A stretch of 64,000 nt of DNA from contig JBAXRK010000001.1 of assembly GCA_037131245.1 (NCBI GenBank), forward strand, positions 152,385-216,384. The letters run 5' to 3'. This DNA is from Candidatus Omnitrophota bacterium (GTDB lineage Bacteria > Omnitrophota > Gorgyraeia > Zapsychrales > Fredricksoniimonadaceae). Made by a program: the position numbers and the translations under genes. The notes under the pieces were generated by a model that was given only the letters and a program-made list of their open reading frames with translations, was not told where the DNA came from and did not search any database. Of this stretch, positions 36,702 through 55,397 are shown piece after piece. Position 1 is the first letter of the stretch; each line of letters starts with the position of its first letter.

Positions 36702-36712
36702 ATCATTTCCCT

Positions 36713-37444: not shown

Positions 37445-37888
37445 TTATCCCCCCGGCCGGACTCCCACCCGACCGTACACCAGCGTCTGTTGCCCGCCGC
37501 GCTCCACCGTGAACGTCACCCGTTCATCGATCCCTGTTGTCTGGACCAGATATTGAAACTGATCCTGTCCTGTCACGCTGGTCCCATTCCAGCGCTGCAG
37601 CACATCCCCTTCCTGAAGCCCAGCTTCCTCTGCCGGCGAACCGTTAAATATCCTGGATACCACTATGCCGCTGGCCGCGACCAGGTCATATTGCCGACGA
37701 AGTTCCGGTGTGAGCTCGATGGTCTCTACCCCCAGCCACACCCGGGGATCCACTGTCTTAAACCTGAAATTCCAGCCCTCGGCAAAAACCAATACGATAT
37801 AAATCAGCGCGATCAGAAGCAACCCCGCCACCATCGCCATGGACGACCCGCTGGGACCTTCTTTTAATGGGCGCGTGGTTGTGATCAT
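37445..37888 (-). CDS. Membrane-anchored single-PDZ protein
   Basis: Start moved to ATG 37888, which overlaps the upstream TGA (ATGA). TM MAMVAGLLLIALIYIVLVF. PDZ WLGVETIELTPELRRQYDL...SPAEEAGLQEGDVLQRWNG. Confidence 0.7.
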   Translation of the reverse strand: MITTTRPLKEGPSGSSMAMVAGLLLIALIYIVLVFAEGWNFRFKTVDPRVWLGVETIELTPELRRQYDLVAASGIVVSRIFNGSPAEEAGLQEGDVLQRWNGTSVTGQDQFQYLVQTTGIDERVTFTVERGGQQTLVYGRVGVRPGG

Positions 37889-38715
37889 TTGCTCCCCTTT
37901 GTGCCAACTCTGATCTTCACACTGTCGCACTTTACGCAATTAAAACACCGCACGCACACCGAACTTCCGGGATCATCGCTGATATTGATATCAACTGGAC
38001 AGTCCTGCCGACACTCCTGGCAATCCTTGCACTTCTTCGGGTCAACATCGAGCTGAACTAGGCTGTGACGGTTAAAGAATCCGAAGATCGCGCCCATCGG
38101 ACAAACCAGCTTGCAGAAAGGCCGTTTAGCAAAAACAAAGTAGGCGACGAACAAAGCCGCGATAAAGATCTTAAGAACAAATAACCAACCCAGTTTTTGG
38201 ATCGACACCGCCGGCTCACCGTACACCGGAATGGTCGGGTTCCAGATCACCCACGGCACTGCCGCTTGAATGGTCCCCATCGGGCAGAGCTTGGAGAACA
38301 TCGTTTCCTGCATAATGAACGGCAGCAGAATGACCAGAAGTCCCAGGATCAAATATCGAAGTCCGGCAAGTTTCAGCGGGATGCGGACCTTGAAGGTCTT
38401 GATCTTATAGAGCAGATCCTGAAGCAACCCGAACGGGCAAAGCCAACCGCAAGCCAAACTCCCCACCGTGATGCCGATCGCTGTCAAATACCCCGCCAGC
38501 AGATACGGGAATTTATGCATGGTCATGTAATGCTGAATGGTCCCGATAGGACATGAAAAAAATGCTGACGGGCAGCTATGGCAATTGAGGAACGGAACAC
38601 AGGAGCTCTTAAGCTCGCCCTGATAAACCTGCTTGGTCTTGAAGAACCCCAGATAAGCGTTCGTGACCACTAGCGTGATCCATTGCACCGCCTCTCTTAT
38701 TCTCTGCAAATCCAT
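37885..38715 (-). CDS. Membrane polyferredoxin, NapH/MauN-like 4Fe-4S protein (Mad6-like, tentative)
   Basis: Start moved to MDLQRIRE (ATG 38715, GGAG 7 nt upstream). CHSCPSAFFSCPIG, CGWLCPFG, CPMG, CKDCQECRQDCP, CVRCFNCVKC. Confidence 0.75.
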   Translation of the reverse strand: MDLQRIREAVQWITLVVTNAYLGFFKTKQVYQGELKSSCVPFLNCHSCPSAFFSCPIGTIQHYMTMHKFPYLLAGYLTAIGITVGSLACGWLCPFGLLQDLLYKIKTFKVRIPLKLAGLRYLILGLLVILLPFIMQETMFSKLCPMGTIQAAVPWVIWNPTIPVYGEPAVSIQKLGWLFVLKIFIAALFVAYFVFAKRPFCKLVCPMGAIFGFFNRHSLVQLDVDPKKCKDCQECRQDCPVDINISDDPGSSVCVRCFNCVKCDSVKIRVGTKGSK

Positions 38716-38719
38716 GGGA

Positions 38720-38851
38720 CTACTCCAATCCGATGCACGCCATGCACATGGTCGCGCCGTTATTCTGGGTTTCCAGCGCGTCATTCGCGCTGTCACCAAG
38801 CAGAAATAAAATAAATACCACGAACAAAACGATGATGACTTTCTTGTTCAT
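38720..38851 (-). CDS. Small membrane peptide (43 aa) with C-terminal CMAC, below ORF-track cutoff as an ATG-started unit
   Basis: MNKKVIIVLFVVFILFLLGDSANDALETQNNGATMCMACIGLE. Its ATG overlaps the upstream TGA (ATGA at 38848..38851). Its last codons supply the RBS of the next gene. Confidence 0.55.
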   Translation of the reverse strand: MNKKVIIVLFVVFILFLLGDSANDALETQNNGATMCMACIGLE

Positions 38852-39201
38852 TGGGCCTCGATCCAGGTCATGTTCTCTTTGCAGCGCGGGCATACCGGAA
38901 ATCCGGTCTTGCCGCAGGCCGGACACACAAAATTCCCGATGAACCCATTCCAGAACATCGCCACTTTACAGGTCGGGCAAAGAGGGACGCCTTTTTCCCC
39001 GCACCTCGGGCAAACCGCGCTCACATTGTGCTGGATGACTTTCATCACCACATTGCTTTTCACCAGCCCCCGCGCCGATAATGACTTGAACTTCCCTACT
39101 GAATAAGCGATGAACACAAAAACAAAAATAGCGAACAGCGCCCCCACGATCATCAGGCGGCTGCGGTCCTCATCGGCAATCTCGCGCATTTGGCCGGCCA
39201 T
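38848..39201 (-). CDS. Membrane-anchored double zinc-ribbon protein
   Basis: Start moved to ATG 39201 (TGATG overlap with the upstream stop). TM MIVGALFAIFVFVFIAY. CPRC-x7-CPTC and CPAC-x7-CPRC. Confidence 0.65.
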   Translation of the reverse strand: MAGQMREIADEDRSRLMIVGALFAIFVFVFIAYSVGKFKSLSARGLVKSNVVMKVIQHNVSAVCPRCGEKGVPLCPTCKVAMFWNGFIGNFVCPACGKTGFPVCPRCKENMTWIEAQ

Positions 39202-39908
39202 CAAAACACTCTCACTTTCGGCTTCACGCCACCGGCCGCGACCATCGGCGCGGCCACTGCCACCACTTCGTGCATCGCGCCGCCGCATTTCGGGCATTGC
39301 GCCGGCATGATCCCGTCAGCCGCTGTTTCAGAAATACGATAATCACAATCAAAGCAGATATAGAACTTGCCCTGAACGATACGGCCCAAATTCGCCTGCG
39401 TGTCAAAAGTCGCGCAAGCCACCGGCTTTTTACTCCCGGTGATCCCGAAATGCGCCGGAACATTCTCGGCGGTTAATTTCGTCAGTCCATCCGGAAAATC
39501 ATTGAGCGCCTGCCAGGCTGAGCCATGAACACCGGTATAAACCTCGATACGCGCCTGGTCAAAAACCCGGAATGGCTCAAACCCGACATTATTCCCCAGG
39601 ACCGCGTCGACCTTCATTCCGGCTATCATCTGGGCGCTGCGTAACCCGGCGGCATGCTGAGCATCCAAATATTTATTCGGTACCGCTTTATATGTTTTCT
39701 TGGCACGGTCGCAAATGATGTAGTAGGGCGCCCGGCCGAACAGATACGACACGGGACTATTGATGTCCGGTCCCGTTGCCGCGATGGCCACGATCACCGC
39801 TTTGCGTCTGCTTAAGATCACCGGATTGTCGTTCTCATAGAACGCCTGCCCGACCACCAGCGTGACGGCCGCAAAAAAAATCATTAAGAAGATCATTTCC
39901 CGGCGCAT
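39201..39908 (-). CDS. NifX/NafY-like (FeMo-cofactor-carrier fold) domain protein with C-terminal zinc ribbon
   Basis: Signal/TM. IVAIAATGPDINSPVSYLFGRAPYYIICD...VDAVLGNNVGFEPFRVFDQARIEVY. CFDC...CPKC. Confidence 0.75.
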   Translation of the reverse strand: MRREMIFLMIFFAAVTLVVGQAFYENDNPVILSRRKAVIVAIAATGPDINSPVSYLFGRAPYYIICDRAKKTYKAVPNKYLDAQHAAGLRSAQMIAGMKVDAVLGNNVGFEPFRVFDQARIEVYTGVHGSAWQALNDFPDGLTKLTAENVPAHFGITGSKKPVACATFDTQANLGRIVQGKFYICFDCDYRISETAADGIMPAQCPKCGGAMHEVVAVAAPMVAAGGVKPKVRVF

Positions 39909-40340
39909 TTATTTCGTATTCTCCTGGTCCACATGGATCTTTTTGTAATAATCGCACTTCACACAGGACTCTTTACAGTAGATCTTCTGATGACTCAAAT
40001 GCTCACGCAACGTGTAACATTTCTTGGTATCCGAAAGGAACACCACGCAGACTTTGCAATTATGGCTCTCTTTCTTTTTTGATCCCTGATGATATTCCCA
40101 GCAGCGCAGGAAATCATTCTCCATGCCCACCAGCTCCTCAGAGCGAAACGCATTGAGTCCGATCTTGTAGGTCTTAATAAAAGCGATCAGGTCCCCGCGA
40201 TGAATGCGCCGATGGCCCCCGGGTGTGCGGGTGGTCTTGAGCATTCCCTTTTTCGTCCAGTTAATGACGGAAAATCGCGTAACGTTACAGACCTTAGCCG
40301 CCTCGACCGTAGAGAAATACTCTTTCATTGTCTCCCCCAT
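39909..40340 (-). CDS. Excisionase/MerR-type HTH regulator with Cys/His-rich C-terminal domain
   Basis: YFSTVEAAKVCNVTRFSVINWTKKGMLKTTRTPGGHRRI. C-terminus CWEYHQG...HNCKVC...C...CKESCVKC. Confidence 0.7.
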   Translation of the reverse strand: MGETMKEYFSTVEAAKVCNVTRFSVINWTKKGMLKTTRTPGGHRRIHRGDLIAFIKTYKIGLNAFRSEELVGMENDFLRCWEYHQGSKKKESHNCKVCVVFLSDTKKCYTLREHLSHQKIYCKESCVKCDYYKKIHVDQENTK

Positions 40341-41330: not shown

Positions 41331-42359
41331 TCAAACTAAAAACAATTTCACTGCCAAAACGATCAGGATCACCACGAACAAATACAGCGTCATCTTCGCG
41401 TTAAGCTTCGGCGCGATGCGCGCCCCGACCTGGGCACCCACGATAACGCCAATGCCCATCCAGAGCGCCTCGGCATAACAAATATTGCCCAGGAACACGT
41501 GCGGCGCGAGCGCAATGGCGCACGTCAGCAAGGTCACAAAGTGGCTGGTCGCGGTGGCAATATGCGACGGATAACGGAGTAAAAAGATCAATATCGGAAC
41601 CTGGAAAACACCGCCGCCGATACCCAGAAAACCGCAAAAGAACCCCAGCGCCAGGTTAAGCGCCACGCCCATTTTATCGTTCGAATAATAATCGTACTTG
41701 ATACCGAACGCGTCCATGAATTTCACATGGCGAAAACCCGCGGCCTTGGCTTCCTTCAATAATGTTTTTTCCTGCGCCGCGCTCTTGTCCAGCCGGCCGA
41801 TGCTGAAGATCGTATAGAACGCCAGGAAGATCAAAAAGATGCCGAAAATAATATTAAAGAAAGACAAATTGATCAAATGGTGCGTAAAGCTCGAGATGAG
41901 CGCGCCCGGCATAGCCGCGAGCGTAAACTTCAAGCCGCCTTTATAATCGATGCGCTTCTGCATCGAATAGCCTAAGCAACCGGAACCCGCGTTCAAAAAA
42001 ACAATGAACAATGATGTCGCCACCAGCAATTCATTTTCCCAACCATAAAAGAAAACCAGCAAGGGAAGAATGATGGGGCCCCCGCCGATACCGACGATGG
42101 TGCCGTAACAGCCGATCGCAAATCCGGTGAAGAGCAACAGCCACCAGGCCGGAAGGTCGGCCGGAACTGCCGCCGCACCCGGAGCCGCAAGGGGCTGCAC
42201 GCCCGCCAAAGCCGCCTGCATGGTCGTTACTGTCTGCGGACCGGCATGATTGGAAGAAGAGAACATCGCGATAATGATCACGATCATCAACGCGATCGCC
42301 ACCCCGATCTTGGCATAGCTCTTCCAGTCGTATGTCATTTCATCGTTCATGTGGAACAT
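41331..42359 (-). CDS. TauE/SafE-family membrane protein (stand-alone equivalent of the MamO C-terminal domain)
   Basis: Two-fold repeated 4-TM units with GTIVGIGGGPIILPLL and FLGIGGGVFQVPIL motifs. 342 aa. Confidence 0.8.
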   Translation of the reverse strand: MFHMNDEMTYDWKSYAKIGVAIALMIVIIIAMFSSSNHAGPQTVTTMQAALAGVQPLAAPGAAAVPADLPAWWLLLFTGFAIGCYGTIVGIGGGPIILPLLVFFYGWENELLVATSLFIVFLNAGSGCLGYSMQKRIDYKGGLKFTLAAMPGALISSFTHHLINLSFFNIIFGIFLIFLAFYTIFSIGRLDKSAAQEKTLLKEAKAAGFRHVKFMDAFGIKYDYYSNDKMGVALNLALGFFCGFLGIGGGVFQVPILIFLLRYPSHIATATSHFVTLLTCAIALAPHVFLGNICYAEALWMGIGVIVGAQVGARIAPKLNAKMTLYLFVVILIVLAVKLFLV

Positions 42360-42377: not shown

Positions 42378-44180
42378 TTAAGGTAATAAGCTTAAAAAAA
42401 TAATATAGAACGTCGAAAGCACAAGAAAAATGATAGCGACCGGGATCCCCCGCCGGCCGTAGCTGGCAAAGGTAAGCCCTTCCTTATTCTTGAGGTCTTT
42501 CCCCATTTCTTCAACCAGCGTCTGCGAAACGATCCCCGCGCTCGCGCCTGAAATACACGCGCACGCACCGGCAATAGAGCCCAGGTTCAGCGCCCACCAC
42601 ACGACATCGGTAAAATCCGCGAACCCCGAATGCAGGACGATCGGCACCAGGAAAGCCGTGGCCGGACCAGCGTTCATGAGCGCGGTAAAGATCGCCATGG
42701 TGAACATCAGCAGGATCGGATAAAGGATCTTGTTGCCCATCGACATCGTCACCAGCGCATCAGAAACCACTTTAAGCATCCCGGAATACAGCGCGCCGCC
42801 GACGATCAAAAAGAGCGCGATAAAGAACAGCATGTCAGTGAGGCTGATCCGCTTGATCACATCCTTGGCCTTATGGTTCTCGATGGCCAGAAGCAGGAAG
42901 CCGCCGCCCAGCGCGATCGGCGCCAGATGGACCTTGAAGAACGGCAGGACCAGGAACGCCACCAGAACCGCGCCCAGAATAATAAGCACCCGCTTGATCC
43001 GGGGCCAATCCATGTGCATCTCTTCAAGCTCGCCCTCAACCTTGGCCAGGAATTCTTTTTCCAGCTTGGCGGAATGATGCTTCTGATTATGACGGAACTC
43101 GGTATACCACATATACCAGAGAAAGACGCCCAGGAAGATCGCGCACATCGGGCCCATCACGATCAAGAAATCAATAAAGGTCAGGCCCGCGGCGGACGCC
43201 ATGAGCATATTGGAGAAGTCCCCGACCGGCGTCATATTCCCGCCGATGACGGACGAAATAAGCTCGGCCACGATCACAGGGATAGGGTCGAAATTGAGCC
43301 CGCGCGCGATATAGATCGTGATCGGGATAACAACCAGAATGATCGAAATGTTGTTCACAAAAGATGACGACAAGGCGGTCACCACGCACAGCGCAAAGAC
43401 CACTTCGATCGTTTTGGCCCGGAACATCACCACGATCTTTTTCGCGCTGTATTCAAAGACGCGCAGGTCATCAAGGAATATCGCAAAGATGCTCATGCCC
43501 ATAAAGATGAAGATGGGGCTCATGTGGATGGCATCGAACGCTTCGGTTTGATTGTAAAAACCGAATGCCGTGCCGGCCAGCAGCATTAATACCGCGCCCA
43601 GCACCACACAGACCGTGCGATTGAAGAGATTAAGGAAAAGCATACCGAAGGTGATCGCCACAATGACCAGCACGACCAGGATATTTCGTCCGCTGGTGCC
43701 AAACAGGTCGACCCCGGCATTAAGCGGCAATTTCTCGCTCATCGTGAGCTTCATGCCGTTACGGGAGATCACGAACGACACCTTATCCCCCGGCTTGTTC
43801 TGCGACATCAGGAAAGATAAATGCGACGCCGACTGGATATCGATATTGTTATACTTGAGGATCACGTCCCCGCGGCGGATATCAATAAGGCGCCGGGCAT
43901 TACCTTTAGGAACATTATTGACCAGCACGCCCGCCACGATCGGCAAATTGAACTCTTTGGCGATAACCGGATTGACCGTCACGCCGTCAAACTCGATGGC
44001 ATTCGACCCGCCCGCCTGCGCCAGACGCGGCTGGCCGTGCGTGGGCATGGTGCGGCTGTCCATGAACAACGCTGTCAGCACAATGACCACAATGATAGCG
44101 ATCGCCGCTTCCATAAAAGGGAAGCTTTTAACGTGCTTGAGGTTGTCTTCCTGAATGGTCCTTCTGATATTTAACGCCAT
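42378..44180 (-). CDS. N-terminal TM + PDZ fused to an ArsB/NhaD-superfamily permease (MamN-like)
   Basis: PDZ FDGVTVNPVIAKEFNLPIVAGVLVNNVPKG...GDVILKYNN, then ~10-12 TM helices with a central soluble loop. 600 aa. Confidence 0.75.
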   Translation of the reverse strand: MALNIRRTIQEDNLKHVKSFPFMEAAIAIIVVIVLTALFMDSRTMPTHGQPRLAQAGGSNAIEFDGVTVNPVIAKEFNLPIVAGVLVNNVPKGNARRLIDIRRGDVILKYNNIDIQSASHLSFLMSQNKPGDKVSFVISRNGMKLTMSEKLPLNAGVDLFGTSGRNILVVLVIVAITFGMLFLNLFNRTVCVVLGAVLMLLAGTAFGFYNQTEAFDAIHMSPIFIFMGMSIFAIFLDDLRVFEYSAKKIVVMFRAKTIEVVFALCVVTALSSSFVNNISIILVVIPITIYIARGLNFDPIPVIVAELISSVIGGNMTPVGDFSNMLMASAAGLTFIDFLIVMGPMCAIFLGVFLWYMWYTEFRHNQKHHSAKLEKEFLAKVEGELEEMHMDWPRIKRVLIILGAVLVAFLVLPFFKVHLAPIALGGGFLLLAIENHKAKDVIKRISLTDMLFFIALFLIVGGALYSGMLKVVSDALVTMSMGNKILYPILLMFTMAIFTALMNAGPATAFLVPIVLHSGFADFTDVVWWALNLGSIAGACACISGASAGIVSQTLVEEMGKDLKNKEGLTFASYGRRGIPVAIIFLVLSTFYIIFLSLLP

Positions 44181-44195
44181 GAGACTCGTCCTTGT

Positions 44196-45017
44196 TTACT
44201 TTGCCGCGTTGACTTTTACGTTATCCATCGGGCCGGTGGGCATGGGTTCATTCTGCTGCTCCACCTGCTCGCGGTTACCGGCATTCGACAAACCGGGCTC
44301 GCGATAATCGATCGTGGCGTTCTTATCAAGATCCCCGTCGACCACCGCGTAATGGAACATGTTCTCGCGATAGCCGAAGACATAAGCATAAATACAACCC
44401 GGGATCTCTTTAACAGCAGCGTGGAAAATACTCGCCGCTTTGTTATATTCCATGCGGCTATCCGCAATACGGTTTTCGCTAATGATCAACGCGTTCATCA
44501 GGTCCTGGAAATTCGCGCTGAGCTTGAGGTCCGGATAGGCTTCGGCGACCGCGAGCAATTTGGTCATCGCGCTCTTGAACAGCTCGGGCTTGACCTTGTC
44601 GAAATCAGCGATACCGTTGGCCTTGAGCGCCTCAAGGACCATTTCCGACTTGCCCGAATTACCCGCGCGGGAATCAGCCATATATTTATACATCATCCGC
44701 TCATGCTCGGCATAAGCCAGCACCATGCGCGCCAGATTCGACGCCAGGTTACGCCGGCGCTGCAACTGCACCTCGATCTGATGCTGCTCCATGTCGGTAA
44801 AACGCGACAGGTTAACGAACTTATTGTAGTAATAGATGCCGGGCAGAATGATCACGACCGCGATCACGATCCCCCACACGCCCTCTTTGGTTTGCAGGTT
44901 ATTAAAGTCGATCTTCTCCCACCAATGCTTGCCGACGGGCCGCAGCTCGCCCAGCTCGCTGGGGAAAAGTTTTTTCATTGATTCGGATATCATGCTCATG
45001 ACTTCGATCTCCTGCAA
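44196..45017 (-). CDS. mamQ: LemA-family protein (MamQ-like)
   Basis: Single TM WGIVIAVVIILPGIYYY. QLQRRRNLASNLARMV, AYPDLKLSANFQDLMNALIISENRIADSRMEYNKAASIFHAAVKEIPG. Confidence 0.8.
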   Translation of the reverse strand: MQEIEVMSMISESMKKLFPSELGELRPVGKHWWEKIDFNNLQTKEGVWGIVIAVVIILPGIYYYNKFVNLSRFTDMEQHQIEVQLQRRRNLASNLARMVLAYAEHERMMYKYMADSRAGNSGKSEMVLEALKANGIADFDKVKPELFKSAMTKLLAVAEAYPDLKLSANFQDLMNALIISENRIADSRMEYNKAASIFHAAVKEIPGCIYAYVFGYRENMFHYAVVDGDLDKNATIDYREPGLSNAGNREQVEQQNEPMPTGPMDNVKVNAAK

Positions 45018-45033
45018 AACAAGTTAATAGCGC

Positions 45034-45858
45034 TTAATGACCCGCGCGCTTCTGCCCGCGCTCGAGGTCCATGGCTTTCTTAAAACAAACGATGGCATCA
45101 TTATGATTGCCGTTGCTCTCATAGAGGAACCCGAGCGCCTGGTAATACACCGCCTGGCGGGGCTCGACGTCGATCGCTTTCTTATAAAACTTCTTGGCTT
45201 CTTCCACATTCTCGGTCTTTTCGTAGCAGGTACCGAGATGATAATAACTATCAGCGTGCTCGTCATTAACTTCAATAGCCTTGAGAAGATAGGGGATCGC
45301 CTCCGCATACTCTTCAAGCACCACCAGGCAATCGCCAAGCTCGGTAATGATGTTCACGTCATTCTTGTCGAGCTTCTCGGCTTTTTTCAAATATTCAACG
45401 GCTTCCTTATGCTCTTCCATGTTCTTATGGCACATCGCCAGCATATAAAGAACGTCGACGTCGCCCGGATTCTCTTCGTCAAAAAGAAGGAACGCGTGCT
45501 GGGACTTCTCAAAATCGCCTTTTTCAAAATACTTATACCCCTGGTCCTTATTGAAAGACGCCTGGGTCTGCTCGGGCGCCACGAAAACGCTCTGGTAGGC
45601 GTTCGACAGTCCGTTAATGATGCGCTCGGCGGTTGACAGGGTCACATTGGTAGCCACTTTGAAATGATGGCCGATATCAGGAACCTTCTCGGCTCTGGCT
45701 TTTTTGGTCACCCGGGGATGACGGCGAACGGGCTTTTCCGCGGCGTCGGCAGCATCATCCGCTTCTTCAACCAACGTGCCCGCGTCGAGGTCACTCGACG
45801 TATCGGCCTCTTTGACCGCGTCTTCATTGTGTCTTTTGTGTTTCTTTAATTCTTCCAT
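45034..45858 (-). CDS. mamA: TPR-repeat protein (MamA-like) with acidic N-terminal extension
   Basis: Five or so 34-residue repeats from about aa 100 (e.g. AVEYLKKAEKLDKNDV, AIPYLLKAIEVNDEHADSYYHLGTCY, AKKFYKKAIDVEPRQAVYYQALGFLY). Confidence 0.75.
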   Translation of the reverse strand: MEELKKHKRHNEDAVKEADTSSDLDAGTLVEEADDAADAAEKPVRRHPRVTKKARAEKVPDIGHHFKVATNVTLSTAERIINGLSNAYQSVFVAPEQTQASFNKDQGYKYFEKGDFEKSQHAFLLFDEENPGDVDVLYMLAMCHKNMEEHKEAVEYLKKAEKLDKNDVNIITELGDCLVVLEEYAEAIPYLLKAIEVNDEHADSYYHLGTCYEKTENVEEAKKFYKKAIDVEPRQAVYYQALGFLYESNGNHNDAIVCFKKAMDLERGQKRAGH

Positions 45859-45872
45859 ATTCCCTCTTTTGA

Positions 45873-46784
45873 TTATTTCCTTGCCGCAGCCAGCGCAAGG
45901 GCCTTAGGAGTTAAATTTTCCTTACACGTGAACGCGACCGTCACTTCCTTGATCTGCGCGTATTTACGCATCAGGGCCTGACGGACTTCACGGGCGATCG
46001 CATGGCCTTCCTTGACCGTCCGTTTCGGGTCAATAATGATCTCAAGGTCGACCCAGGCATGCTGCCCCACGCGACGGGCATGGACATAATTAACGCCCAT
46101 CACCTGGCGGTACTTCATGACTTCCGCCTCGATGACCTTTTCCTTATCGCCGGGCAGGGCTTCATCGATGAGGTTCTTGAACGACTGCAACCCCAGCGTG
46201 ACCGCCGACTTGCCGATCATCAGGCCAACGAAGATCGCCGCCAGCGCGTCTATAATAGGAAAACCGATATTGGCCGCGAAAACGCCGAACAACACCGCGA
46301 TACTTGAAAGCATGTCGGAGCGGTTCTCCTGGGCATTCGCGATCATCGCCGGTGAATTCAGTTTTCTGCCCACGCAAAAGCCGTAAGACGACAAAATGAA
46401 GTTCGCCAGGATCGCGACCAAAGCCGCGAAGAACGCCGCCATGTGGGGCGCCTTGATCTCGCCGCTCACAATGACCGCGATGGCGTCGATCAGGATCATG
46501 CATGAAATACCAAAGAGCAGAATATACGCGAAAACCGCGCCGATGAATTCCGATTTGCCCAGGCCCCAGGGATATTTCTTATCATCCCGGTGGCTGGAGA
46601 GCTTGACCGTGATGATGACCATGAGCGTCGTCGCCACGTCGGTACCGCTGTGAAACCCGTCAGCCACCAGACCCTTCGACTTGGCGGCATAACCGATATA
46701 GATCTGAAAGATCGCAAGCGTCAAATTCCCAAGGAGGACGATCCAGGGAACGATCTTGCCGCATTTAACGCAACGTTCTTGCAT
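45873..46784 (-). CDS. mamB: Cation diffusion facilitator, MamB-like
   Basis: N-terminal CVKC, TM2 ADGFHSGTD, YPWGLGKSEF, TM5 NAQENRSD (compare the MamB NAWDNRSD as I recall it), CDF C-terminal fold. Confidence 0.8.
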   Translation of the reverse strand: MQERCVKCGKIVPWIVLLGNLTLAIFQIYIGYAAKSKGLVADGFHSGTDVATTLMVIITVKLSSHRDDKKYPWGLGKSEFIGAVFAYILLFGISCMILIDAIAVIVSGEIKAPHMAAFFAALVAILANFILSSYGFCVGRKLNSPAMIANAQENRSDMLSSIAVLFGVFAANIGFPIIDALAAIFVGLMIGKSAVTLGLQSFKNLIDEALPGDKEKVIEAEVMKYRQVMGVNYVHARRVGQHAWVDLEIIIDPKRTVKEGHAIAREVRQALMRKYAQIKEVTVAFTCKENLTPKALALAAARK

Positions 46785-46787
46785 AAA

Positions 46788-47687
46788 TTATTCCGCCGGA
46801 AAATCCTGAATAAAGATATTACCGATGTACTTATCTTCGCTTCTAAGCAAAGCCCGGACCGACTGATTGATGTGCTTGGCCTCAACAACACTGAGCTCGG
46901 GGCTAAGCTGCAACCCGATATCGAGTACGATCTGCCGCCCTGTCTGGCGCGCCCGAACGTGTTTGATCTTGGCGATCCCCTTTACCGTCTCGACCGTGCG
47001 GTGGATCTTCTCCAGGTACTCCTCGGGCAGGTTCGTATCAACGATGCCTTTAAGCCCGCTTTTGAGGATCTCAAAACTGGCATGCAAAACGTGTGCGCAC
47101 TCGAAGATCGCGATGACCGGGTCCACCCAGTGCAACCCCATGCGGGTCACGACCACGCCGATCGCGACCAGGAGCGATGAAATAACGTCGATCTTGTTAT
47201 GTTCCGCGTGCGCTTTTAAGGAAGGGCTGTTAAGCTCCTGCCCGCTGCAATGCGAAAATTTATAAATGAACGCGCTGATGGTGGCCGACAGGATCGCCAC
47301 GAAAAACACCACCGAGTGCTGGACCACAAAGGTGCGCTTGGCCAGAACAATGAAAGAGCTCAAGATCAGCGCCAGCGTACCCAGGATCATGATGACGCTC
47401 ATCACGACTTGCGCGATGAACTCGATCTTGCCGTAGCCGTAAGGGTAGCGGTGATCGGCCGGCTTCTTGGAATACTTGACGCCGATAATGACTACGATCG
47501 AAGAAAGAACGTCACTCAAATTACAAAGCCCGCTGCCGATGAGCGCGCGGCTGCGGCCCATGAACCCCACGAACAACTTGAACGCCGCCAGGAACAGATT
47601 CGCGATAATGCCCGCGAAGATCGTCTTGCGCGCGCAAGCCTCGCATTTCTGTGAATTCTTTTTCTTTGGCTCGTTATTTGACGACAT
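46788..47687 (-). CDS. mamM: Cation diffusion facilitator, MamM-like
   Basis: N-terminal CEAC, TM2 GSGLCNLSD, YPYGYGKIEF, TM5 HAEHNKID, CDF C-terminal fold. Immediately upstream of the MamB-like gene. Confidence 0.75.
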   Translation of the reverse strand: MSSNNEPKKKNSQKCEACARKTIFAGIIANLFLAAFKLFVGFMGRSRALIGSGLCNLSDVLSSIVVIIGVKYSKKPADHRYPYGYGKIEFIAQVVMSVIMILGTLALILSSFIVLAKRTFVVQHSVVFFVAILSATISAFIYKFSHCSGQELNSPSLKAHAEHNKIDVISSLLVAIGVVVTRMGLHWVDPVIAIFECAHVLHASFEILKSGLKGIVDTNLPEEYLEKIHRTVETVKGIAKIKHVRARQTGRQIVLDIGLQLSPELSVVEAKHINQSVRALLRSEDKYIGNIFIQDFPAE

Positions 47688-47962
47688 TACGCCTCATCTT
47701 CGAACAACTCGCCATCATCCTCTTCCGCCGCCACCGCCTTGGCCTTGCGGTTCATCCTTGACCCGAAATGGACCATCATCCAGAACATATTGCTGGCGCC
47801 AATGACATAAGAGACGGCAATAATAATGATCAGCCCGCACTGGCGGCCCTTGAAGAACGGGATCCAGATCCTGACCGGGTCAAGGTTCTCAAAAACGAAC
47901 ATCCCCATGAACAGGGCGGCCAGCAGGAAAGCGATGATCTTAAGTATCAGTTTGATGTTCAT
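47687..47962 (-). CDS. Small membrane protein, LapA-domain-like, acidic tail
   Basis: Two TM helices with the FENLDPVRIWIPFF loop; tail EEDDGELFEDEA. Confidence 0.5.
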   Translation of the reverse strand: MNIKLILKIIAFLLAALFMGMFVFENLDPVRIWIPFFKGRQCGLIIIIAVSYVIGASNMFWMMVHFGSRMNRKAKAVAAEEDDGELFEDEA

Positions 47963-49155
47963 AGCGCCGGTTTCAAGATGATATGACAGTTATTGCATTT
48001 GCCCCGGAATTCATGGGGAGCAACCGCGCCTTTAGTGATCGGCGGCGGCGTGGGCAAAATATCGCCCGCGTCCGTGGGAAGCTGGCCGCCGGTGATCATG
48101 ATGATATGACAGGCCGTGCACGGCTTACCCTGCTGGCGCTTGCGATGGGGCGCGAGCGCGCCGGGCTTGATCGGCTGGGCCGCTTCATTCTGCGAAAAGC
48201 CCAGCGTTCGGTCGGAAACAAACGTGAATTCCATCATCCGCCCGCGGCGGTTAACCTGCACCCGGGCCTTTTTGGCATTCTTGACCCGGCGGGTCGCCTC
48301 GGTGAACGCCGCGAGGTCAGGTGTGGAAAAATGTTCAACGCCGATCACCATGTCGCCGGCCAGAATTCCGGACTCGGCAGACTCAAGCGAAATCTCGTCG
48401 ACCAGCAAACCCTTCGTGTCGGGCGCGATGCCGAATTCTTTAGCCAACTCAGGTACCAATGGAATAAGCTCCATGCCCAGCCAATGGCCTTCAACAAGTT
48501 CTTTATGCGCCGCGCCCTGTTCTTTGGGCGAAGGAAGCATGATGGTCGGAGCCCGGCGGTTTACAACGGGCGCTGCCGCGGCACCGGCTTCCTGGACCAG
48601 CGCGACCGGGGCCAAGGCCGCGTCACCAAAAGTCGTTTCCTTCATCGCGACCGGCGCGCCTTCCGTCGTCTGAGCAACGGGCGTGGCCAGGCCATGGCCG
48701 GTCGTACCCGGATCGATATTAAGCATTTTCTTCATCGTATCGTGCATGCTGCCGGTGCTCTGCATCGTAATGAACAAGGGCTGGCCTTGACGGAGAATAT
48801 CAAGAAGAACGCCGTTACTGACATCGGTGACCTTGGTCACTTTAAGAAAATCATTGATCGTAAGCGTCGGCTTATTGTTGATCGATTTAATAACGTCGCC
48901 GCCGCGCACGCCCGACGCGAATGCCGGGTCTTCACACCAGTTGACCACCACGCCCTTCTCGTCTTTGGGAATGCTGAACTCCATCTGCAGCGCCGGCGTC
49001 ATGTTCGACACCGTCATGCCCGACCACTCGGCGTCGCCCGCCCCGATGTGCATGAGCGCGGCCGTGATAAAGAGGCCCAAAATGATGAGCAGGGTCAAGA
49101 GCAAACCCCTCTTCATTTTTTTATAGCGGTATTCCTGTAATTGCGGCTCAAGCAT
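47959..49155 (-). CDS. TM + two PDZ + two magnetochrome motifs (MamP / MamE-C-terminal-like)
   Basis: PDZ1 WSGMTVSNMTPALQMEF...GDVIKSINN. PDZ2 WLGMELIPLVPELAKEFGI...GDMVIGVEH. PCTACH and HEFRGKCNNCH. Confidence 0.85.
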   Translation of the reverse strand: MLEPQLQEYRYKKMKRGLLLTLLIILGLFITAALMHIGAGDAEWSGMTVSNMTPALQMEFSIPKDEKGVVVNWCEDPAFASGVRGGDVIKSINNKPTLTINDFLKVTKVTDVSNGVLLDILRQGQPLFITMQSTGSMHDTMKKMLNIDPGTTGHGLATPVAQTTEGAPVAMKETTFGDAALAPVALVQEAGAAAAPVVNRRAPTIMLPSPKEQGAAHKELVEGHWLGMELIPLVPELAKEFGIAPDTKGLLVDEISLESAESGILAGDMVIGVEHFSTPDLAAFTEATRRVKNAKKARVQVNRRGRMMEFTFVSDRTLGFSQNEAAQPIKPGALAPHRKRQQGKPCTACHIIMITGGQLPTDAGDILPTPPPITKGAVAPHEFRGKCNNCHIILKPAL

Positions 49156-49686: not shown

Positions 49687-51300
49687 TTATTTGATCGCCA
49701 TGTGGGCGACGTTCGGATCCTGCATGCCATTATTCTGCGCGACTTCATTCTCGACGGCCTGTTGCTGCATTGGAACATTCTGCATCGCCACGGGTTGAGC
49801 CTGTACTGCCTGCGCCGGCGCGATCTGATGGCAATTGGAACAAACACCGCGATAAGCGTGCGGCATCGTCGCATTAGCGGCGATCGTGATATCAGGTTTT
49901 ACCGTATGACAATTTTCGCAAACACCCCGGAACTGGTGAGGCATCACCGCATCGCGAAAGATCGGCGGAGCACTGTTAGGCACGGGATTCGCCACCGGAG
50001 CGTTTTGGACCATGGCGATCCGCGACGCCGGATTGACCCGCTTCATGATCTGCCCGCAATTGGGACAACGCGGAAATTCATTCATGCCCTGCTCGGAATG
50101 CATCAACCAACCGCAATTGGGACATTTAAAACCATTGGTCATGTCCGGATTCGGGCTGAAAAAATTCGCCTGAGTGCCCATCATCATGGCCTGCTGACCC
50201 ATGGCCTGCTGAGCCATCGCTTGCTGAGCCATCGCTTGCTGACCGAAGGCCTGATTCTGCATCTGCATTTCCGGCTGTTCAACGAACGGGTTCACGAGAC
50301 GATTCTGATTCTGGGCCTGCATATCAAGCGCCATCGACCCGCCGCAATTCGGGCACTGTGGAAACCCATCGCCTTGCTGGCTACTTTTCATGCGCCAGTT
50401 ACAGATAGGACAAACATACGCCCGCTGGCCCCAACCGAACCAGCCGGCTTGCATTGCTCCCGCGCCCCCCTGGGCCATGGCTTGCTGTTGGGCCAACTGC
50501 TGCTGAAGGATCTGCTGCTGATACAAATAACCCGGGCCGTTGCCGTTATGAAGCATGCCGATGCCTTGAAAACCACCGGGGAGAGGACAAGTCGGTTGCT
50601 GAGCCTGCATCATATAATTCATCGGCATATTCTGCATGCCCATGCCTTGCTGCATCATATTTCCCTGCATGCCCATCGGCATATTCGCTGCCATCCCGCC
50701 GCCCATCCCCCCTACGGGGGCCATGCCTTGCATCTGCATTTGCTGTTGAACAGGAATTTGCTGGGCTTGCCCGGGCATCGGAGAGGCCGGAATTCTCGCC
50801 TGACGATATAAACTGATCACTTTCTGCGCCCGGCCCTGATACCCGCCGAACACCCTGATGCCGAACTGCGAAAGCGTATTGTAGGTCTGCTGATCCACAC
50901 TGCCGACGATGACCGCTTCCTCGCCCTTGCTGGCGATCAAATACGTCATCTGCTGGCTGGGCCCCTGGCCGAAATAAGGGTTCTTAACCACTTCCATCAA
51001 TTTCTTGTTGAGCGGATTGACGACCAGAAAATAACGGGCCTCGGACAAGGTCGGCGCGACAGGCGCCGCCAGCGAACGGCCGCCGGTCGCGATAACGATC
51101 ATCCCGCAAGCCGGGTTACCTTTGGCCGTGCCGGTCGATTCCGCCGAGAACAGGGCATATGTCCCGACGATCAAGATGAGCACGATCGCGGAAAAAATGA
51201 AGATAACGTTCAGGTCGGTATCCTTGAACCGTTCTTCGACCTTTGCCAGGATCGACTTAAGATCAATATTGAACGCGGCGCCCTCAGACTTCTTAGCCAT
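49687..51300 (-). CDS. Mosaic protein: TM + NifX/NafY-like domain + Met/Gln-rich low-complexity region + two zinc ribbons + two magnetochromes
   Basis: LSEARYFLVVN...AVIVGSVDQQTYNTLSQFGIRVF. aa 171-380 are Q/M/G-rich with QQAMAQQAMAQQAMGQQAM. CPIC..CPNC and CPNC..CPNC. HQFRGVCENCH and HAYRGVCSNCH. Confidence 0.8.
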   Translation of the reverse strand: MAKKSEGAAFNIDLKSILAKVEERFKDTDLNVIFIFSAIVLILIVGTYALFSAESTGTAKGNPACGMIVIATGGRSLAAPVAPTLSEARYFLVVNPLNKKLMEVVKNPYFGQGPSQQMTYLIASKGEEAVIVGSVDQQTYNTLSQFGIRVFGGYQGRAQKVISLYRQARIPASPMPGQAQQIPVQQQMQMQGMAPVGGMGGGMAANMPMGMQGNMMQQGMGMQNMPMNYMMQAQQPTCPLPGGFQGIGMLHNGNGPGYLYQQQILQQQLAQQQAMAQGGAGAMQAGWFGWGQRAYVCPICNWRMKSSQQGDGFPQCPNCGGSMALDMQAQNQNRLVNPFVEQPEMQMQNQAFGQQAMAQQAMAQQAMGQQAMMMGTQANFFSPNPDMTNGFKCPNCGWLMHSEQGMNEFPRCPNCGQIMKRVNPASRIAMVQNAPVANPVPNSAPPIFRDAVMPHQFRGVCENCHTVKPDITIAANATMPHAYRGVCSNCHQIAPAQAVQAQPVAMQNVPMQQQAVENEVAQNNGMQDPNVAHMAIK

Positions 51301-51312
51301 ACCCCATCTCCA

Positions 51313-51930
51313 TTATTTAACGACCGGACCGTACTGGAACGCCTGCCCCAACACCGGTGAACCTAATTGCCATGTCCCCTTGTTCGGCCCGAACAGCGGA
51401 CCATACTGATATTCAAAAGGGACCGTGATATATAAATTTTCTTTACCGCGGAACACGTCGAGCAGAATGCCGTTGGTAAAACGCGTATTCTGCGCCGCGT
51501 CCACAAACTCGCGGCTGTTACGCACCGGATGGCGGTTAAGCGACACGATCACGTCGCCCATCTTGACGCCGTTGCGGAACGCTTCCTGCGTGCCCTGATC
51601 GACCACGAACATCCCCTTGATACGGCCGGGGATCTTGAATTCCTTGCGCAGCATCGGCGACACCGGCGCGATCTCCATGCCCAGCCACACCAGCGTATCG
51701 GTCTTTTTAAAGACCTGCGGCTTCTGCGCTTTCATCTCGGCCGTTTCCGGCAGCACTTCGGTCGCCCTTAAATACTCAACGCCCCAGGTCAATGTCAAAA
51801 TAACACCCGTCACGATCGCCGCCAGCACCCAGGGTTTCTCGCGCGCGAATTCCACCGTTTGCTTGATGACCTTCTGCCAAGGAGCAAACTCTTTTTCCGC
51901 CGCCTTGTGGTGTGTTTTTTTCTGTGTCAT
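51313..51930 (-). CDS. Membrane-anchored single-PDZ protein
   Basis: TM WVLAAIVTGVILTLTWGV. PDZ WLGMEIAPVSPMLRKEFKIPGRIKGMFVVD...GDVIVSLNR. Confidence 0.7.
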   Translation of the reverse strand: MTQKKTHHKAAEKEFAPWQKVIKQTVEFAREKPWVLAAIVTGVILTLTWGVEYLRATEVLPETAEMKAQKPQVFKKTDTLVWLGMEIAPVSPMLRKEFKIPGRIKGMFVVDQGTQEAFRNGVKMGDVIVSLNRHPVRNSREFVDAAQNTRFTNGILLDVFRGKENLYITVPFEYQYGPLFGPNKGTWQLGSPVLGQAFQYGPVVK

Positions 51931-53324
51931 TGCAACCTCACCAGGACTTCGTCGTACTTGCCGTTGCGGTAGATCCGCACGTTCACATTATCGCCCGCCT
52001 TGAAATGGGTCACGACCTTCGGGATATCATTGGTCTCCACGATCGGCACACCGGCGACCGACATCACGATGTCGCCGCGCATGATGCCGGCCATCGCCGC
52101 GGGAGAACCGTCAAGGATCCGATTGACCAGCACGCCCTGACCGAGCGGAATACCATACTGCTTGGAAATAATAGGATCGACCGCCATGACTTCGATACCG
52201 AAATGCACCGGCACCGGGCCCTGCTGTAAATGGCTGAACTTGGTGAGCGCCACATTGACCATACCCTTCTGATCGAGGGGAACGGTATAGCTCTTGCCAA
52301 GGTTAGCCGATAAGAAATCTTTGCAATTATTGATGGGAATAGCGAAACCCGTGCCGCTGAACACGCCGGTCGGCGCGTAGATGGCGGTATTGATCCCGAT
52401 GACCTCGCCCTTCATATTGACCAGCGGACCACCGGATGAGCCGCGGTTAATGGACGCGTCGGTCTGGAACAGATCTTTGTAGCGGACGCCATCAATGACC
52501 ATCGATTTGCGGTTGCCGCTGATAATACCGCTGGTGACCGTCTGCTCGATCCCGAAGGGGCTGCCCACCGCCACCACATAATCGCCCACCTGGGTCCAGC
52601 TGGAATCGCCAATTTTGGCTTCCGGGAAAAGAACATCCGCGCCCGTGATCTTGAGGATCGCCAGGTCCGAATTCGCATCCTGCGCCACGATCTGGGCCGG
52701 ATAATCGCGCGCGGGCGAACCGAACACGGTAACCATGATGTCGGTGGCGTCCTGCGTCACATGATAATTCGTCAGGATATAGCCGCGCTCGTCAACAAAA
52801 ACACCGCTGCCGATCCGTTCAAAACCTTTATTGGCAATAAATTTATCGATCACGCCATCGAAAGGCGGCACGAACTTGAGATTCTGCGCATCGGGTACCA
52901 CTTTGCGCGGAGCACGCACAACCCGTTGAGCGTGAATATCGCAGACGGTCGGAATAATGCCGTTGACCGCATCCTTAAGCGAATTCTGAAAACCGCCGGC
53001 ATTGTCAACCTGCTGAGCAACCAACTGCATACCGCCATTAGGCGTGGCCTTGGTAAGCGCCGCGCGCGCGTAGTTAGGATCGTTCCACTGAGCGGCAGGT
53101 GGCGTGACAGTCGCGGCAGGCATAACACCCTTAGGGAATGAAGGCTCGCCTTGGATCGGAGACGTCACCTTGGGAGGCTCGGGTGTTTCCAGTTCTAACG
53201 GAATGAAGATCTCGTTCCGTTTGAGAACGACCCACATGACCGACATGACCGAAACGCCAATAAGCCCGTAAACCCAGGGCTTGATCGACTGATTACAAAA
53301 TTCGTCATTGTGATCTTGAGGCAT
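51927..53324 (-). CDS. mamE: HtrA/DegP-type serine protease with one PDZ (MamE-like protease part)
   Basis: TM VYGLIGVSVMSVMWVVL. Triad contexts ILTNYHV, SDLAILKI, GSSGGPLVN. C-terminal PDZ. No CXXCH in this polypeptide. Confidence 0.85.
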   Translation of the reverse strand: MPQDHNDEFCNQSIKPWVYGLIGVSVMSVMWVVLKRNEIFIPLELETPEPPKVTSPIQGEPSFPKGVMPAATVTPPAAQWNDPNYARAALTKATPNGGMQLVAQQVDNAGGFQNSLKDAVNGIIPTVCDIHAQRVVRAPRKVVPDAQNLKFVPPFDGVIDKFIANKGFERIGSGVFVDERGYILTNYHVTQDATDIMVTVFGSPARDYPAQIVAQDANSDLAILKITGADVLFPEAKIGDSSWTQVGDYVVAVGSPFGIEQTVTSGIISGNRKSMVIDGVRYKDLFQTDASINRGSSGGPLVNMKGEVIGINTAIYAPTGVFSGTGFAIPINNCKDFLSANLGKSYTVPLDQKGMVNVALTKFSHLQQGPVPVHFGIEVMAVDPIISKQYGIPLGQGVLVNRILDGSPAAMAGIMRGDIVMSVAGVPIVETNDIPKVVTHFKAGDNVNVRIYRNGKYDEVLVRLQ

Positions 53325-53348: not shown

Positions 53349-53567
53349 TTAAAAAAGGACTTTACCATCTGCTGTTGTCCCGGCCACAGGAGTGGCTGGA
53401 ACCGTATGCATCGTGCCCTGCGCCACCGGCTTGGGATGCTTCCTGGCCCGCTTACGCGCGCTGCCCTTGGTCTCAAAGAAAACCGCACCCGCGATCACGA
53501 TACAAACGATCAGGATGACCAGGTAACCGATCCAGGGACTAAAGCATTTATCGCTTCTGCCGATCAT
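53349..53567 (-). CDS. Small single-TM protein with basic tail
   Basis: 72 aa. TM WIGYLVILIVCIVIAGAVFF followed by a K/R/P-rich tail. Confidence 0.5.
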   Translation of the reverse strand: MIGRSDKCFSPWIGYLVILIVCIVIAGAVFFETKGSARKRARKHPKPVAQGTMHTVPATPVAGTTADGKVLF

Positions 53568-53579
53568 ATAAACCTCTTA

Positions 53580-53750
53580 TTACTTCTTTTCTTTGAGGAA
53601 TTTCAAACCCGTGTTAACCGCAATCAAACCGCCGATGAAGATCGCCAGGGGCATGCTGCCGCGCAGGAAATCGCCGAAATTATCCCACCAGCCGATGATA
53701 CCGATAATACCCAGAACTGCCGCGATCGAACCTCCGATAATGTGAACCAT
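53580..53750 (-). CDS. mamI: MamI-like small two-TM protein (56 aa), below ORF-track cutoff
   Basis: Hand translation: MVHIIGGSIAAVLGIIGIIGWWDNFGDFLRGSMPLAIFIGGLIAVNTGLKFLKEKK. The G-x-x-G-W-W ... F-L-R-G ... P pattern matches my recollection of MamI. AAGGAAAGGGGA lies upstream of the ATG. Confidence 0.65.
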   Translation of the reverse strand: MVHIIGGSIAAVLGIIGIIGWWDNFGDFLRGSMPLAIFIGGLIAVNTGLKFLKEKK

Positions 53751-53779
53751 GTGATTCCCCTTTCCTTGCGTTTATTAGA

Positions 53780-54157
53780 TTAAACTTTTTTCTCGCTACC
53801 CGGCTTAACCATCTTATGGGCAAAAGCCGCGATGACCTTACCTGATGCGAAAGCACCCCTTGAAACCATGCTATCGATCTTGGCCTTCTGTTTAACCAGA
53901 AAAGCGCCAACCACAGCCGGCTCTTTAACCGCCTCAACTGCCTTTTGGACAGCATTGGGCACAAGGTCAACAGCCGCCTGATCGCTGCTATGACTCTTTT
54001 TAACTAAGTCTAATACTGCTTTACGGGGGATGCGTTGATGGCCGCCAAGGGTGGCGGTGGATTCAAGTTTATGCTTCTTGACCCAGTTAAGAACGGTGAA
54101 ACGGGTGACGTGACAGATCTTGGCGGCTTCAGTAGTTGTTAAGTAATCGGTATGCAT
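53780..54157 (-). CDS. Excisionase/MerR-type HTH regulator, first gene of the cluster
   Basis: YLTTTEAAKICHVTRFTVLNWVKKHKLESTATLGGHQRI is paralogous to the HTH at 39909..40340. Confidence 0.7.
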   Translation of the reverse strand: MHTDYLTTTEAAKICHVTRFTVLNWVKKHKLESTATLGGHQRIPRKAVLDLVKKSHSSDQAAVDLVPNAVQKAVEAVKEPAVVGAFLVKQKAKIDSMVSRGAFASGKVIAAFAHKMVKPGSEKKV

Positions 54158-54217: not shown

Positions 54218-54246
54218 AAGTATAAAGATTTGATAAAATTATGTCA
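54218..54246 (-). promoter_or_regulatory. Strong sigma70-type promoter candidate for the mam-like operon
   Basis: Minus strand reads TTGACAtaattttatcaaatcttTATACT (17-nt spacer) inside a 268-nt AT-rich gap, about 60 nt upstream of the ATG at 54157. Confidence 0.6.
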
Positions 54247-54425
54247 AGAAAACTTTATGGGGTGCCCCGGAATTTAAAAAGAGGAAATTGTTAAAATGGT
54301 TGAAGCCTTTAGAAGATAAAAATATTGATATTTTATCGACGGGACCAAAAGGAGGGGTCAACAGAAAGGAAAAGAAATGTTAGACAAGACAAACAATGGA
54401 TGGGGTGAGTAAAAGAGTGCGGCTG

Positions 54426-55397
54426 TTAGAAAACATTGAAATTGTTGAATCCGTCCGTTCGCAACTGGCGGATCGTGCCATCAACATTTTCAATGATCAG
54501 CGCTTCAACGTTTTCAACCATTCGCGCGAACGCTAATGCTTTCTCACCACCCATCACGCATAGCGCAGTTGACAGCTCATTGGCCGCTTGAGTGTTATTC
54601 GCAATGACCGTAACACTGGCCGCGCCGGTTTGCGGATACCCGGTCCTAGGATCAATAATATGGGCATAGCGAGTACCATCAATTGTTGAAAACTTCTCAT
54701 AATCACCGGATGTCGAGACCCCTTTGCCATCCAGTTTGATGTCCATCAGAACGCTTTCCTTATTAAAGGGATCCTGAATGCCGACTTTCCAGGGGAATTC
54801 AGCTTTATTAAGGCCGCGGGCGAAGATCTCCCCGCCGCCATCGACCATAAAGTGTTCTATTCCATATGTTTGCATAATTAGAGCCACTTCATCACAGAAG
54901 TAGCCGGAGGCGGGGCTGCCGAGGTCGATCATCATGCCCTGCTTTAAGAATTTGACTTTATCCGGCTCAAATTGTTGAAAATGTTGAAATCCGACTTTAC
55001 TTTTGGCGATCTCAAGGGAGTCTTTATCCGGCAGGCGGTTCTTGGCGGCGGCATTTTTCCATATCTTGACCAAAGGATAGATGGTCATATCGTAGGCGCC
55101 ATCGGTCAGTTGTGCGTATTTCAAGGATTGCTTCAGGATCTTGAACAGATCCGGATGGACCCGGGCGCCTTCAAAGCCAAGCTCATTGAGCCAGCTTAAA
55201 TTGCCTTCTTTCAGGCCCGCGTGAACATTCAAATTCTGCTGAATGCTCTCGGCTTTCTGCCAGATCGCCCTTGCGGCGCCGGCCATATCCACCCCGTCCC
55301 TATAGAAACAATGGGCCCAGATCGTGGTTCCGAAGTAAGGGCGAATCTCGTAGTATTCCTTCAAAATTGTTGAAATTGTGGAATCCTTTGCGGGCAT
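54426..55397 (-). CDS. apbE: FAD:protein FMN transferase (ApbE family)
   Basis: YFGTTIWAHCFY..., GAYDMTIYPLVKIW, MMIDLGSPASGYFCDEV, GGGEIFARG, VSTSGDYEKF...YAHIIDPRTGYP. No obvious signal peptide. Confidence 0.85.
   Translation of the reverse strand: MPAKDSTISTILKEYYEIRPYFGTTIWAHCFYRDGVDMAGAARAIWQKAESIQQNLNVHAGLKEGNLSWLNELGFEGARVHPDLFKILKQSLKYAQLTDGAYDMTIYPLVKIWKNAAAKNRLPDKDSLEIAKSKVGFQHFQQFEPDKVKFLKQGMMIDLGSPASGYFCDEVALIMQTYGIEHFMVDGGGEIFARGLNKAEFPWKVGIQDPFNKESVLMDIKLDGKGVSTSGDYEKFSTIDGTRYAHIIDPRTGYPQTGAASVTVIANNTQAANELSTALCVMGGEKALAFARMVENVEALIIENVDGTIRQLRTDGFNNFNVF

Follow-up and report, generated by a model that had tools for sequence, protein, structure and literature searches.

MamI belongs to the core set mamABIKMQ, which is shared by over 90% of 83 high-quality genomes of magnetotactic bacteria (MTB), as established in a study in which 20 Omnitrophota MTB genomes were reconstructed (Lin et al. 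2020, PMC7602337). In Magnetospirillum magneticum AMB-1, deletion of mamI abolishes the magnetosome membranes and a MamI-GFP fusion marks the magnetosomes (PMC3905215). In M. gryphiswaldense MSR-1, on the other hand, the deletion mutant still has wild-type-like magnetosome membranes, with particles in only some of them, and the localisation of MamI-GFP depends on other Mam proteins, chiefly on MamB (PMC4902198). The recruitment cascade places MamI downstream of MamB, MamM, MamQ and MamL, together with MamE and MamO (PMC4902198). A preliminary description of the locus studied here had called MamI essential for magnetosome membrane formation, a statement that is correct for AMB-1 but does not extend to MSR-1 (PMC4902198). 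Furthermore, MamI was reported to have no homologues outside MTB (PMC3905215).

The DNA analysed in this work, referred to as the window in the following, is a stretch of 64,000 nucleotides from a Candidatus Omnitrophota genome. It contains a short ORF which, with a probability of about 0.92 and as judged from sequence comparison and gene context, encodes the orthologue of MamI in a magnetosome gene cluster of the magnetite type that belongs to an uncultured member of the Omnitrophota. The ORF, its start signal and a competing longer ORF are located as follows:

53580..53750, minus strand: mamI coding sequence, 56 aa, ATG to TAA
53756..53767, minus strand: Shine-Dalgarno-like sequence AAGGAAAGGGGA, 5 nt before the mamI ATG
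53680..53970, minus strand: 96-aa ORF with TTG start in another frame, overlapping the HTH gene and mamI; spurious

The start codon of the 56-aa ORF lies at 53750 and its TAA stop codon at 53582..53580. The purine block preceding the ATG, already seen in the preliminary description, is AAGGAAAGGGGA at 53767..53756 and is separated from the start codon by the 5-nt spacer ATCAC. The deduced peptide, MVHIIGGSIAAVLGIIGIIGWWDNFGDFLRGSMPLAIFIGGLIAVNTGLKFLKEKK, is identical in the program-made ORF list and in that description. It had been termed invisible to the ORF track, which is true for the length threshold of the first-stage track but not for GenBank, where the gene has already been called and the exact protein is deposited as MEI6437215.1 ('hypothetical protein' WCO69_00520, 247-kb contig of a Candidatus Omnitrophota MAG).

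Hydropathy analysis of the protein reveals two hydrophobic segments at approximately residues 2-22 and 32-50 with a polar loop (23-31) between them, and AlphaFold2, run on a 44-sequence alignment, predicts helices 2-20 and 22-55 with a mean pLDDT of 95. Both results bear out the two transmembrane (TM) helices joined by a WW..F..FLRG loop that had been proposed earlier. The loop joining both helices, WWDNFGDFLRG (W21 to G31), is invariant or nearly so over its 11 residues in 36 sequences, in which H3 and P34 are invariant too. The loop carries a net charge of -1 and the C-terminal tail LKFLKEKK one of +3. Glycine accounts for 10 of the 56 residues, and several small-xxx-small motifs are found in the helices. 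The protein is therefore a small two-TM protein with a short loop and falls into the size range of MamI, which is about 55-80 aa.

The gene resides within a magnetosome gene cluster, two genes upstream of a mamE-like gene. The neighbouring features, ordered from the 5' side of mamI to the distal part of the cluster, are:

54426..55397, minus strand: apbE, syntenic in most loci
54219..54247, minus strand: sigma-70-like promoter match TTGACA-17-TATACT, 11/12 consensus, located in the 268 bp that separate apbE from the HTH gene
53780..54157, minus strand: HTH_17/excisionase-type DNA-binding protein, 125 aa (Pfam HTH_17 E=1.8e-9; TIGR01764 2.9e-10)
53349..53567, minus strand: single-TM protein of 72 aa whose tail is basic and rich in proline, here called s72 (GenBank MEI6437214.1, WCO69_00515)
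51927..53324, minus strand: MamE-like HtrA serine protease with PDZ, 465 aa (Trypsin_2 1.4e-31, PDZ_2, NCBIfam MamE 7.8e-76)
51313..51930, minus strand: PDZ protein
49687..51300, minus strand: 537-aa protein with two magnetochrome motifs
47959..49155, minus strand: MamP
46788..47687, minus strand: MamM
45873..46784, minus strand: MamB
45034..45858, minus strand: MamA
44196..45017, minus strand: MamQ
42378..44180, minus strand: PDZ-MamN fusion (NCBIfam MamN 1.9e-76)
41331..42359, minus strand: TauE/MamO C-terminal-like protein

Distal cluster genes (PDZ, HTH_17, NifB-like, ferredoxin, magnetochrome, CDF) continue to about 33 kb. The HTH protein (GenBank MEI6437216.1) has a weak match to MamR (0.087). 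In the 537-aa protein, a NifB/FeMo-co-like domain, a Q/M/G-rich low-complexity stretch and zinc-ribbon motifs are combined with the two magnetochrome motifs at the C-terminus, and this protein is conserved in Omnitrophota loci with 34-64% identity. The MamN-like CitMHS transporter carries an N-terminal PDZ domain, a fusion that also occurs in loci L001 and L002. On the minus strand between 32915 and 40340, a second HTH_17 gene (39909-40340), a NifB/FeMo-co-like gene (39201-39908), a Fer4 gene (37885-38799) and a gene for a 237-aa protein with magnetochrome motif (36713-37426) are joined by up to three more CDF (MamB/M-like) paralogues (35817-36842, 34915-35820 and 32915-34048). This distal part resembles a second module that has a regulator of its own.

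When 23 related loci were inspected by tblastn, the order HTH-mamI-s72-mamE-PDZ-magnetochrome protein was found in all 21 Omnitrophota-type loci that are long enough, and an HTH gene precedes mamI in 23 of 23, in some of them separated from it by an insert of about 1.7 kb. No other protein of the block is as well conserved across the loci as MamI, with an identity of 66-95% as against 52-83% (MamE) and 36-66% (HTH protein). All 21 loci that reach far enough have the s72 gene between mamI and mamE (34-60% identity). Its product yielded no significant Pfam or NCBIfam match, and a protein search gave only six homologues, all from Omnitrophota and all without domains. The additional segment between the HTH gene and mamI occurs at L002:8274-9985, where it holds genes for a FixC-like flavoprotein and a FixX-like ferredoxin, and at about 4300-6000 in L007, L011, L016, L020 and L024; the window lacks it. 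A full Omnitrophota-type HTH-mamI-s72-mamE block with 75% MamI identity is present in a MAG labelled 'Planctomycetales' (L019, CAZASA010000011.1), which could be due to mis-binning, a problem with the taxonomy label or horizontal transfer. Another MAG, labelled 'Gemmatimonadales' (L025, CAZJQI010000031.1), contains a MamI-like gene with 44% identity and no syntenic neighbours.

The relationship of the 56-aa protein to MamI was assessed in both directions. NCBIfam model NF040963 (MamI, equivalog) aligns residues 1-54 with profile positions 1-54 of 69 (E=8.1e-12, 44.8 bits) and is the sole NCBIfam match of the protein at E<=0.1. Precomputed matches to Pfam PF26391 ('MamI') exist for every listed homologue, including P0001, which represents the 90%-identity cluster of the window protein. 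Our local Pfam scan gave no match for the 56-aa protein. However, a bona fide MamI, that of Candidatus Terasakiella magnetica (CAA7623088.1, P0270; 105 bits on the NCBIfam MamI model), likewise remained without a MamI match there, so that the blank represents a gap in the library and not negative evidence. For the reciprocal test, a profile of 36 clade members was run without word index against 1.84 billion cluster representatives. Among the 200 matches at E<=1e-3 was P0174 (E=3.1e-7), whose cluster holds P0270 under the name 'Magnetosome protein MamI [Ca. Terasakiella magnetica]', so that a named, cluster-embedded MamI is retrieved in addition to the match with a curated MamI profile. P0270 is encoded in the order mamH (MFS) - mamI - mamE (trypsin + magnetochrome + PDZ) - ... 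- mamK - ... - mamM. In pairwise BLASTP the two proteins share 33% identity and 69% positives over 39 residues comprising the loop and TM2, with the common signature WWDNFGDFLRGSMP in the window protein and WWWSVTEFLRGAVP in P0270. The Terasakiella loop reads WWWSVTEFLRG, and the motif named in the preliminary description is therefore genuine. The identification as MamI made there is supported by NF040963, PF26391 and the named Terasakiella protein, the proposed search with a MamI profile having returned significant similarity. A second MamI-like ORF, as it occurs in some Desulfobacterota, was not found in the window when all six frames were searched with an HMM at full sensitivity (next best E=0.085). 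As the only MamI-like ORF, the gene indeed supplies the core component that otherwise appeared to be missing: the cluster has its MamI, and the core set mamABIKMQ/EP is not short of it.

The score of the window protein lies below the NCBIfam equivalog cut-off of 80 bits, which explains the label 'hypothetical protein' in GenBank. The low value is no argument against orthology because the other Mam proteins of the window are all below their cut-offs as well, i.e. MamE with 256 bits (cut-off 800 bits), MamM with 246 bits (350 bits), MamB with 238 bits (350 bits), MamA with 138 bits (200 bits), MamP with 210 bits (300 bits), MamQ with 102 bits (250 bits) and MamN with 258 bits (500 bits), and because cluster-embedded MamI proteins from other non-model lineages also stay under 80 bits (P0122, 54.8; P0169, 72.3). 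The MamI equivalog cut-off is tuned to proteobacterial MamI. With cut-offs tuned to Proteobacteria, small core genes of deep-branching MTB remain 'hypothetical'.

The overlapping 96-aa ORF, mentioned in the preliminary description and present in the ORF list at the position given above, is longer than the 56-aa ORF and is the one shown by the first-stage ORF track. That it should be the real gene, and the 56-aa ORF a frame open by chance, is nevertheless practically inconceivable. Its overlap amounts to 191 nt with the HTH gene and 71 nt with mamI, it has no match in a Pfam scan, and its exact product was not found in a collection of 15 billion proteins in which the 56-aa, 72-aa and HTH products all occur. 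The two frames were compared over 23 related loci including that of a complete 1.8-Mb genome (L002). The 96-aa frame is interrupted by 1-10 stop codons in each of them, which rules this ORF out as a gene, whereas the frame of mamI is open for 55-58 codons in all 23. Conservation of the 96-aa frame in homologous loci had been named beforehand as an observation that would speak against mamI; the opposite is found. Pairwise nucleotide differences over the first 49 codons of the 23 loci amount to 26%, 9% and 66% at codon positions 1, 2 and 3, and an AAGGAG/GGAG-type purine block is kept 5-9 nt ahead of the start codon in 26 related loci. A search of 5.8 billion proteins returned 51 homologues of 54-63 aa (one has 80 aa) with 64-95% identity. 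A scan of species-representative genomes yielded 23 loci. In 22 the identity is 66-94%; 21 of these 22 are labelled Omnitrophota or Omnitrophica and one 'Planctomycetales'. Taken together, the uniformly short ORF in all loci, the third-position bias, the kept ribosome-binding site and the broken rival frame lead us to conclude from comparative evidence that the 56-aa ORF is a real gene under purifying selection.

A protein of this kind might also be another small two-TM magnetosome protein, related to MamL or Man2 and not to MamI. In fact, MamL is a small two-helix protein considered 'very similar to MamI' (PMC3905215), and alternative small proteins such as Man2 are used by deep-branching MTB (PMC9840458). 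We regard this as highly improbable, given that MamI is the only NCBIfam family matched, that the clade profile finds a named MamI and that the gene is placed upstream of mamE as in the classical operon. Moreover, the adjacent 72-aa protein with its basic tail appears to be the better MamL- or Man2-like candidate and may be a partner of this type. A different objection is that the window protein could be a generic, MamI-like two-helix housekeeping membrane protein that lies beside magnetosome genes without having a function in magnetosomes. Proteins with equal or better MamI-profile scores do occur alone among housekeeping genes: P0097 adjoins genes for FdhD, AraC and TusA on a 3.7-Mb contig, P0111 is found between the genes for shikimate dehydrogenase and LeuRS, and P0118 between those for PlsB and RNase H on 16 contigs. 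No magnetosome genes are present in the +/-8 kb viewed around each of these three, and their genomes may have a cluster elsewhere. For the protein studied here, we consider such a role clearly unlikely. Its clade occupies one fixed place between the HTH gene and mamE in 23 of 23 Omnitrophota-type loci, among them the complete 1.8-Mb genome, the long charged C-tail seen in the non-cluster proteins is missing from it, His3 and the FG..[LM]RG..P loop are common to it and to cluster-embedded MamI such as P0122, and the named MamI P0270 is likewise encoded upstream of mamE. Since a profile match alone cannot separate MamI from paralogues, the assignment of the window protein as MamI orthologue rests on the cluster context and on the common H3 / FG..LRG..P signature.

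The standalone MamI-like genes (L026:8001-8333, L027:8001-8222, L028:8001-8285 and L029:8001-8285) merit attention of their own. Distant PF26391 members with a long charged or coiled C-tail reach 38-59 bits with the NCBIfam MamI model, which is equal to or above the value for the window protein. The standalone proteins, 73-110 aa in length and scoring 42-59 bits, share with the latter the two-helix core including G7, G14, G17, W21, F25, P34 and G41, but differ from it by the long charged/coiled tail, by a loop ending in L(A/Q/K)G or LMA instead of LRG and by the lack of His3. Those members with His3 and/or an LRG loop end that were checked (P0049, P0122, P0169, P0270) sit in magnetosome clusters. 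Among 179 family representatives, the loop ends with [LMV]RG in 66 and with LAG, LKG, LQG or LMA in about 65. At the family level, MamI hence appears not to be strictly MTB-specific, contrary to what had been assumed for this locus, and the published statement that homologues do not exist outside MTB appears too strong and in need of qualification in the light of these sequences. A profile match in itself is no proof of a role in magnetosomes; here, it is the conserved cluster context that provides it. Within a wider, hitherto unremarked two-helix membrane family, MamI may be the branch without a tail that was recruited to magnetosomes, with the 56-aa form of the Omnitrophota (invariant H3 and WWDNFGDFLRG) as its minimal version, an idea for and against which we see the chances evenly balanced. 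If it is true, the ancestral activity at the membrane from which an early step of magnetosome biogenesis arose (oligomerisation or curvature sensing?) could be learned from the standalone relatives. These proteins are the only mildly novel thread of our analysis. Current understanding of magnetosome biology is unchanged. The annotation is correct but ordinary, as both the MamI family and its presence in Omnitrophota are already known. Its value lies in a functional name for an unnamed small gene; the annotation is settled, and the 96-aa ORF should be dropped.

In the preliminary description, mamI had been taken to mark the start of the mam-like operon. The HTH gene, which ends 29 nt upstream of the mamI ATG, is the more likely first gene, as it is syntenic everywhere and preceded by a promoter-like site. 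The TTGACA-17-TATACT sequence is a candidate for the operon promoter; the scan for promoter consensus sequences found two sites versus 1.4 expected in shuffles, and the assignment is a consensus match only. Judged by gene position, the operon most likely begins at the HTH gene. A common transcript most likely comprises mamI, this gene and those for s72, the MamE-like protease, the PDZ and magnetochrome proteins and MamP, MamM, MamB, MamA, MamQ and MamN, a proposal drawn from the distances between the genes and from a single consensus promoter match. Ahead of the HTH gene, the minus strand between 54426 and 58925 carries apbE followed by genes for an Ion_trans_2 protein, a STAS anti-anti-sigma factor, a HATPase_c_2 anti-sigma kinase and a CHASE2-SpoIIE phosphatase. 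The order from apbE to the SpoIIE gene is syntenic in the closest relative (L001:4726-9315). This partner-switching module may regulate the cluster or belong to it. Because apbE and the partner-switching genes have the same orientation and are syntenic in the closest relatives, the 5' border of the functional cluster may lie beyond the HTH gene.

To our knowledge, no Omnitrophota MTB has been cultured or is genetically tractable. The proposed role of the protein is modelled on Magnetospirillum MamI, by analogy with which it would be inserted into the cytoplasmic membrane and then drawn into the forming magnetosome membrane by other Mam proteins, next to MamE. With its very short N-terminus and a C-tail that is basic (net +3), the protein is predicted by the positive-inside rule to have both termini in the cytoplasm and the loop W21-G31 at the periplasmic/lumenal interface. 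The protein would act early, either in membrane remodelling, as in AMB-1, and/or in rendering the vesicle competent for magnetite nucleation, as in MSR-1. Remodelling might be brought about by crowding or wedging of a small, tightly packing membrane subunit, and nucleation competence might be conferred through the conserved loop on the lumen side. From the Gly-rich helices and the invariant loop, close packing of the helices or oligomerisation may be expected, together with a specific contact to a partner on the lumenal side. The invariant 11-residue loop is a good target for mutagenesis.

Within the Omnitrophota, the MamI clade shows no difference of substance from the window protein. MBF0386936.1 (HQL20_03675) of MAG nHGR_bin18, for example, exhibits 95% protein identity and falls into the same 90% cluster, and gene order in this clade is identical to that in the window from apbE to the magnetochrome protein. 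At the nucleotide level, mamI of the window is about 86-87% identical to its counterparts in the nearest species representatives. The HQL-tagged homologues stem from MAGs with names (nDJH, nHGR and nS315 bins) in the style of the PMC7602337 study. Differences are more pronounced when the alphaproteobacterial proteins are considered. With 56 aa, MamI from the window is shorter than these (69-77 aa) and lacks their C-terminal extension, leaving profile positions 55-69 unmatched. It has an invariant His3 and FG in the loop, whereas Terasakiella MamI has Ser3 and VT. In the window, a 72-aa gene is inserted between mamI and mamE, and mamI is preceded by an HTH gene, its place being taken by mamH in Terasakiella. 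The MamE protein of the window is devoid of a magnetochrome domain, which is found in separate proteins, while Terasakiella MamE contains such a domain. Alphaproteobacterial MamI, be it from M. magneticum AMB-1, M. gryphiswaldense MSR-1 or Ca. Terasakiella magnetica, is likewise a small protein with two TM helices and a short loop. Terasakiella and window MamI have in common the motif WW-x4-(E/D)FLRG-xx-P and, after it, a TM2 containing Gly, in both cases the gene precedes mamE at the 5' end of the main mam operon, and their homology is significant in both directions.
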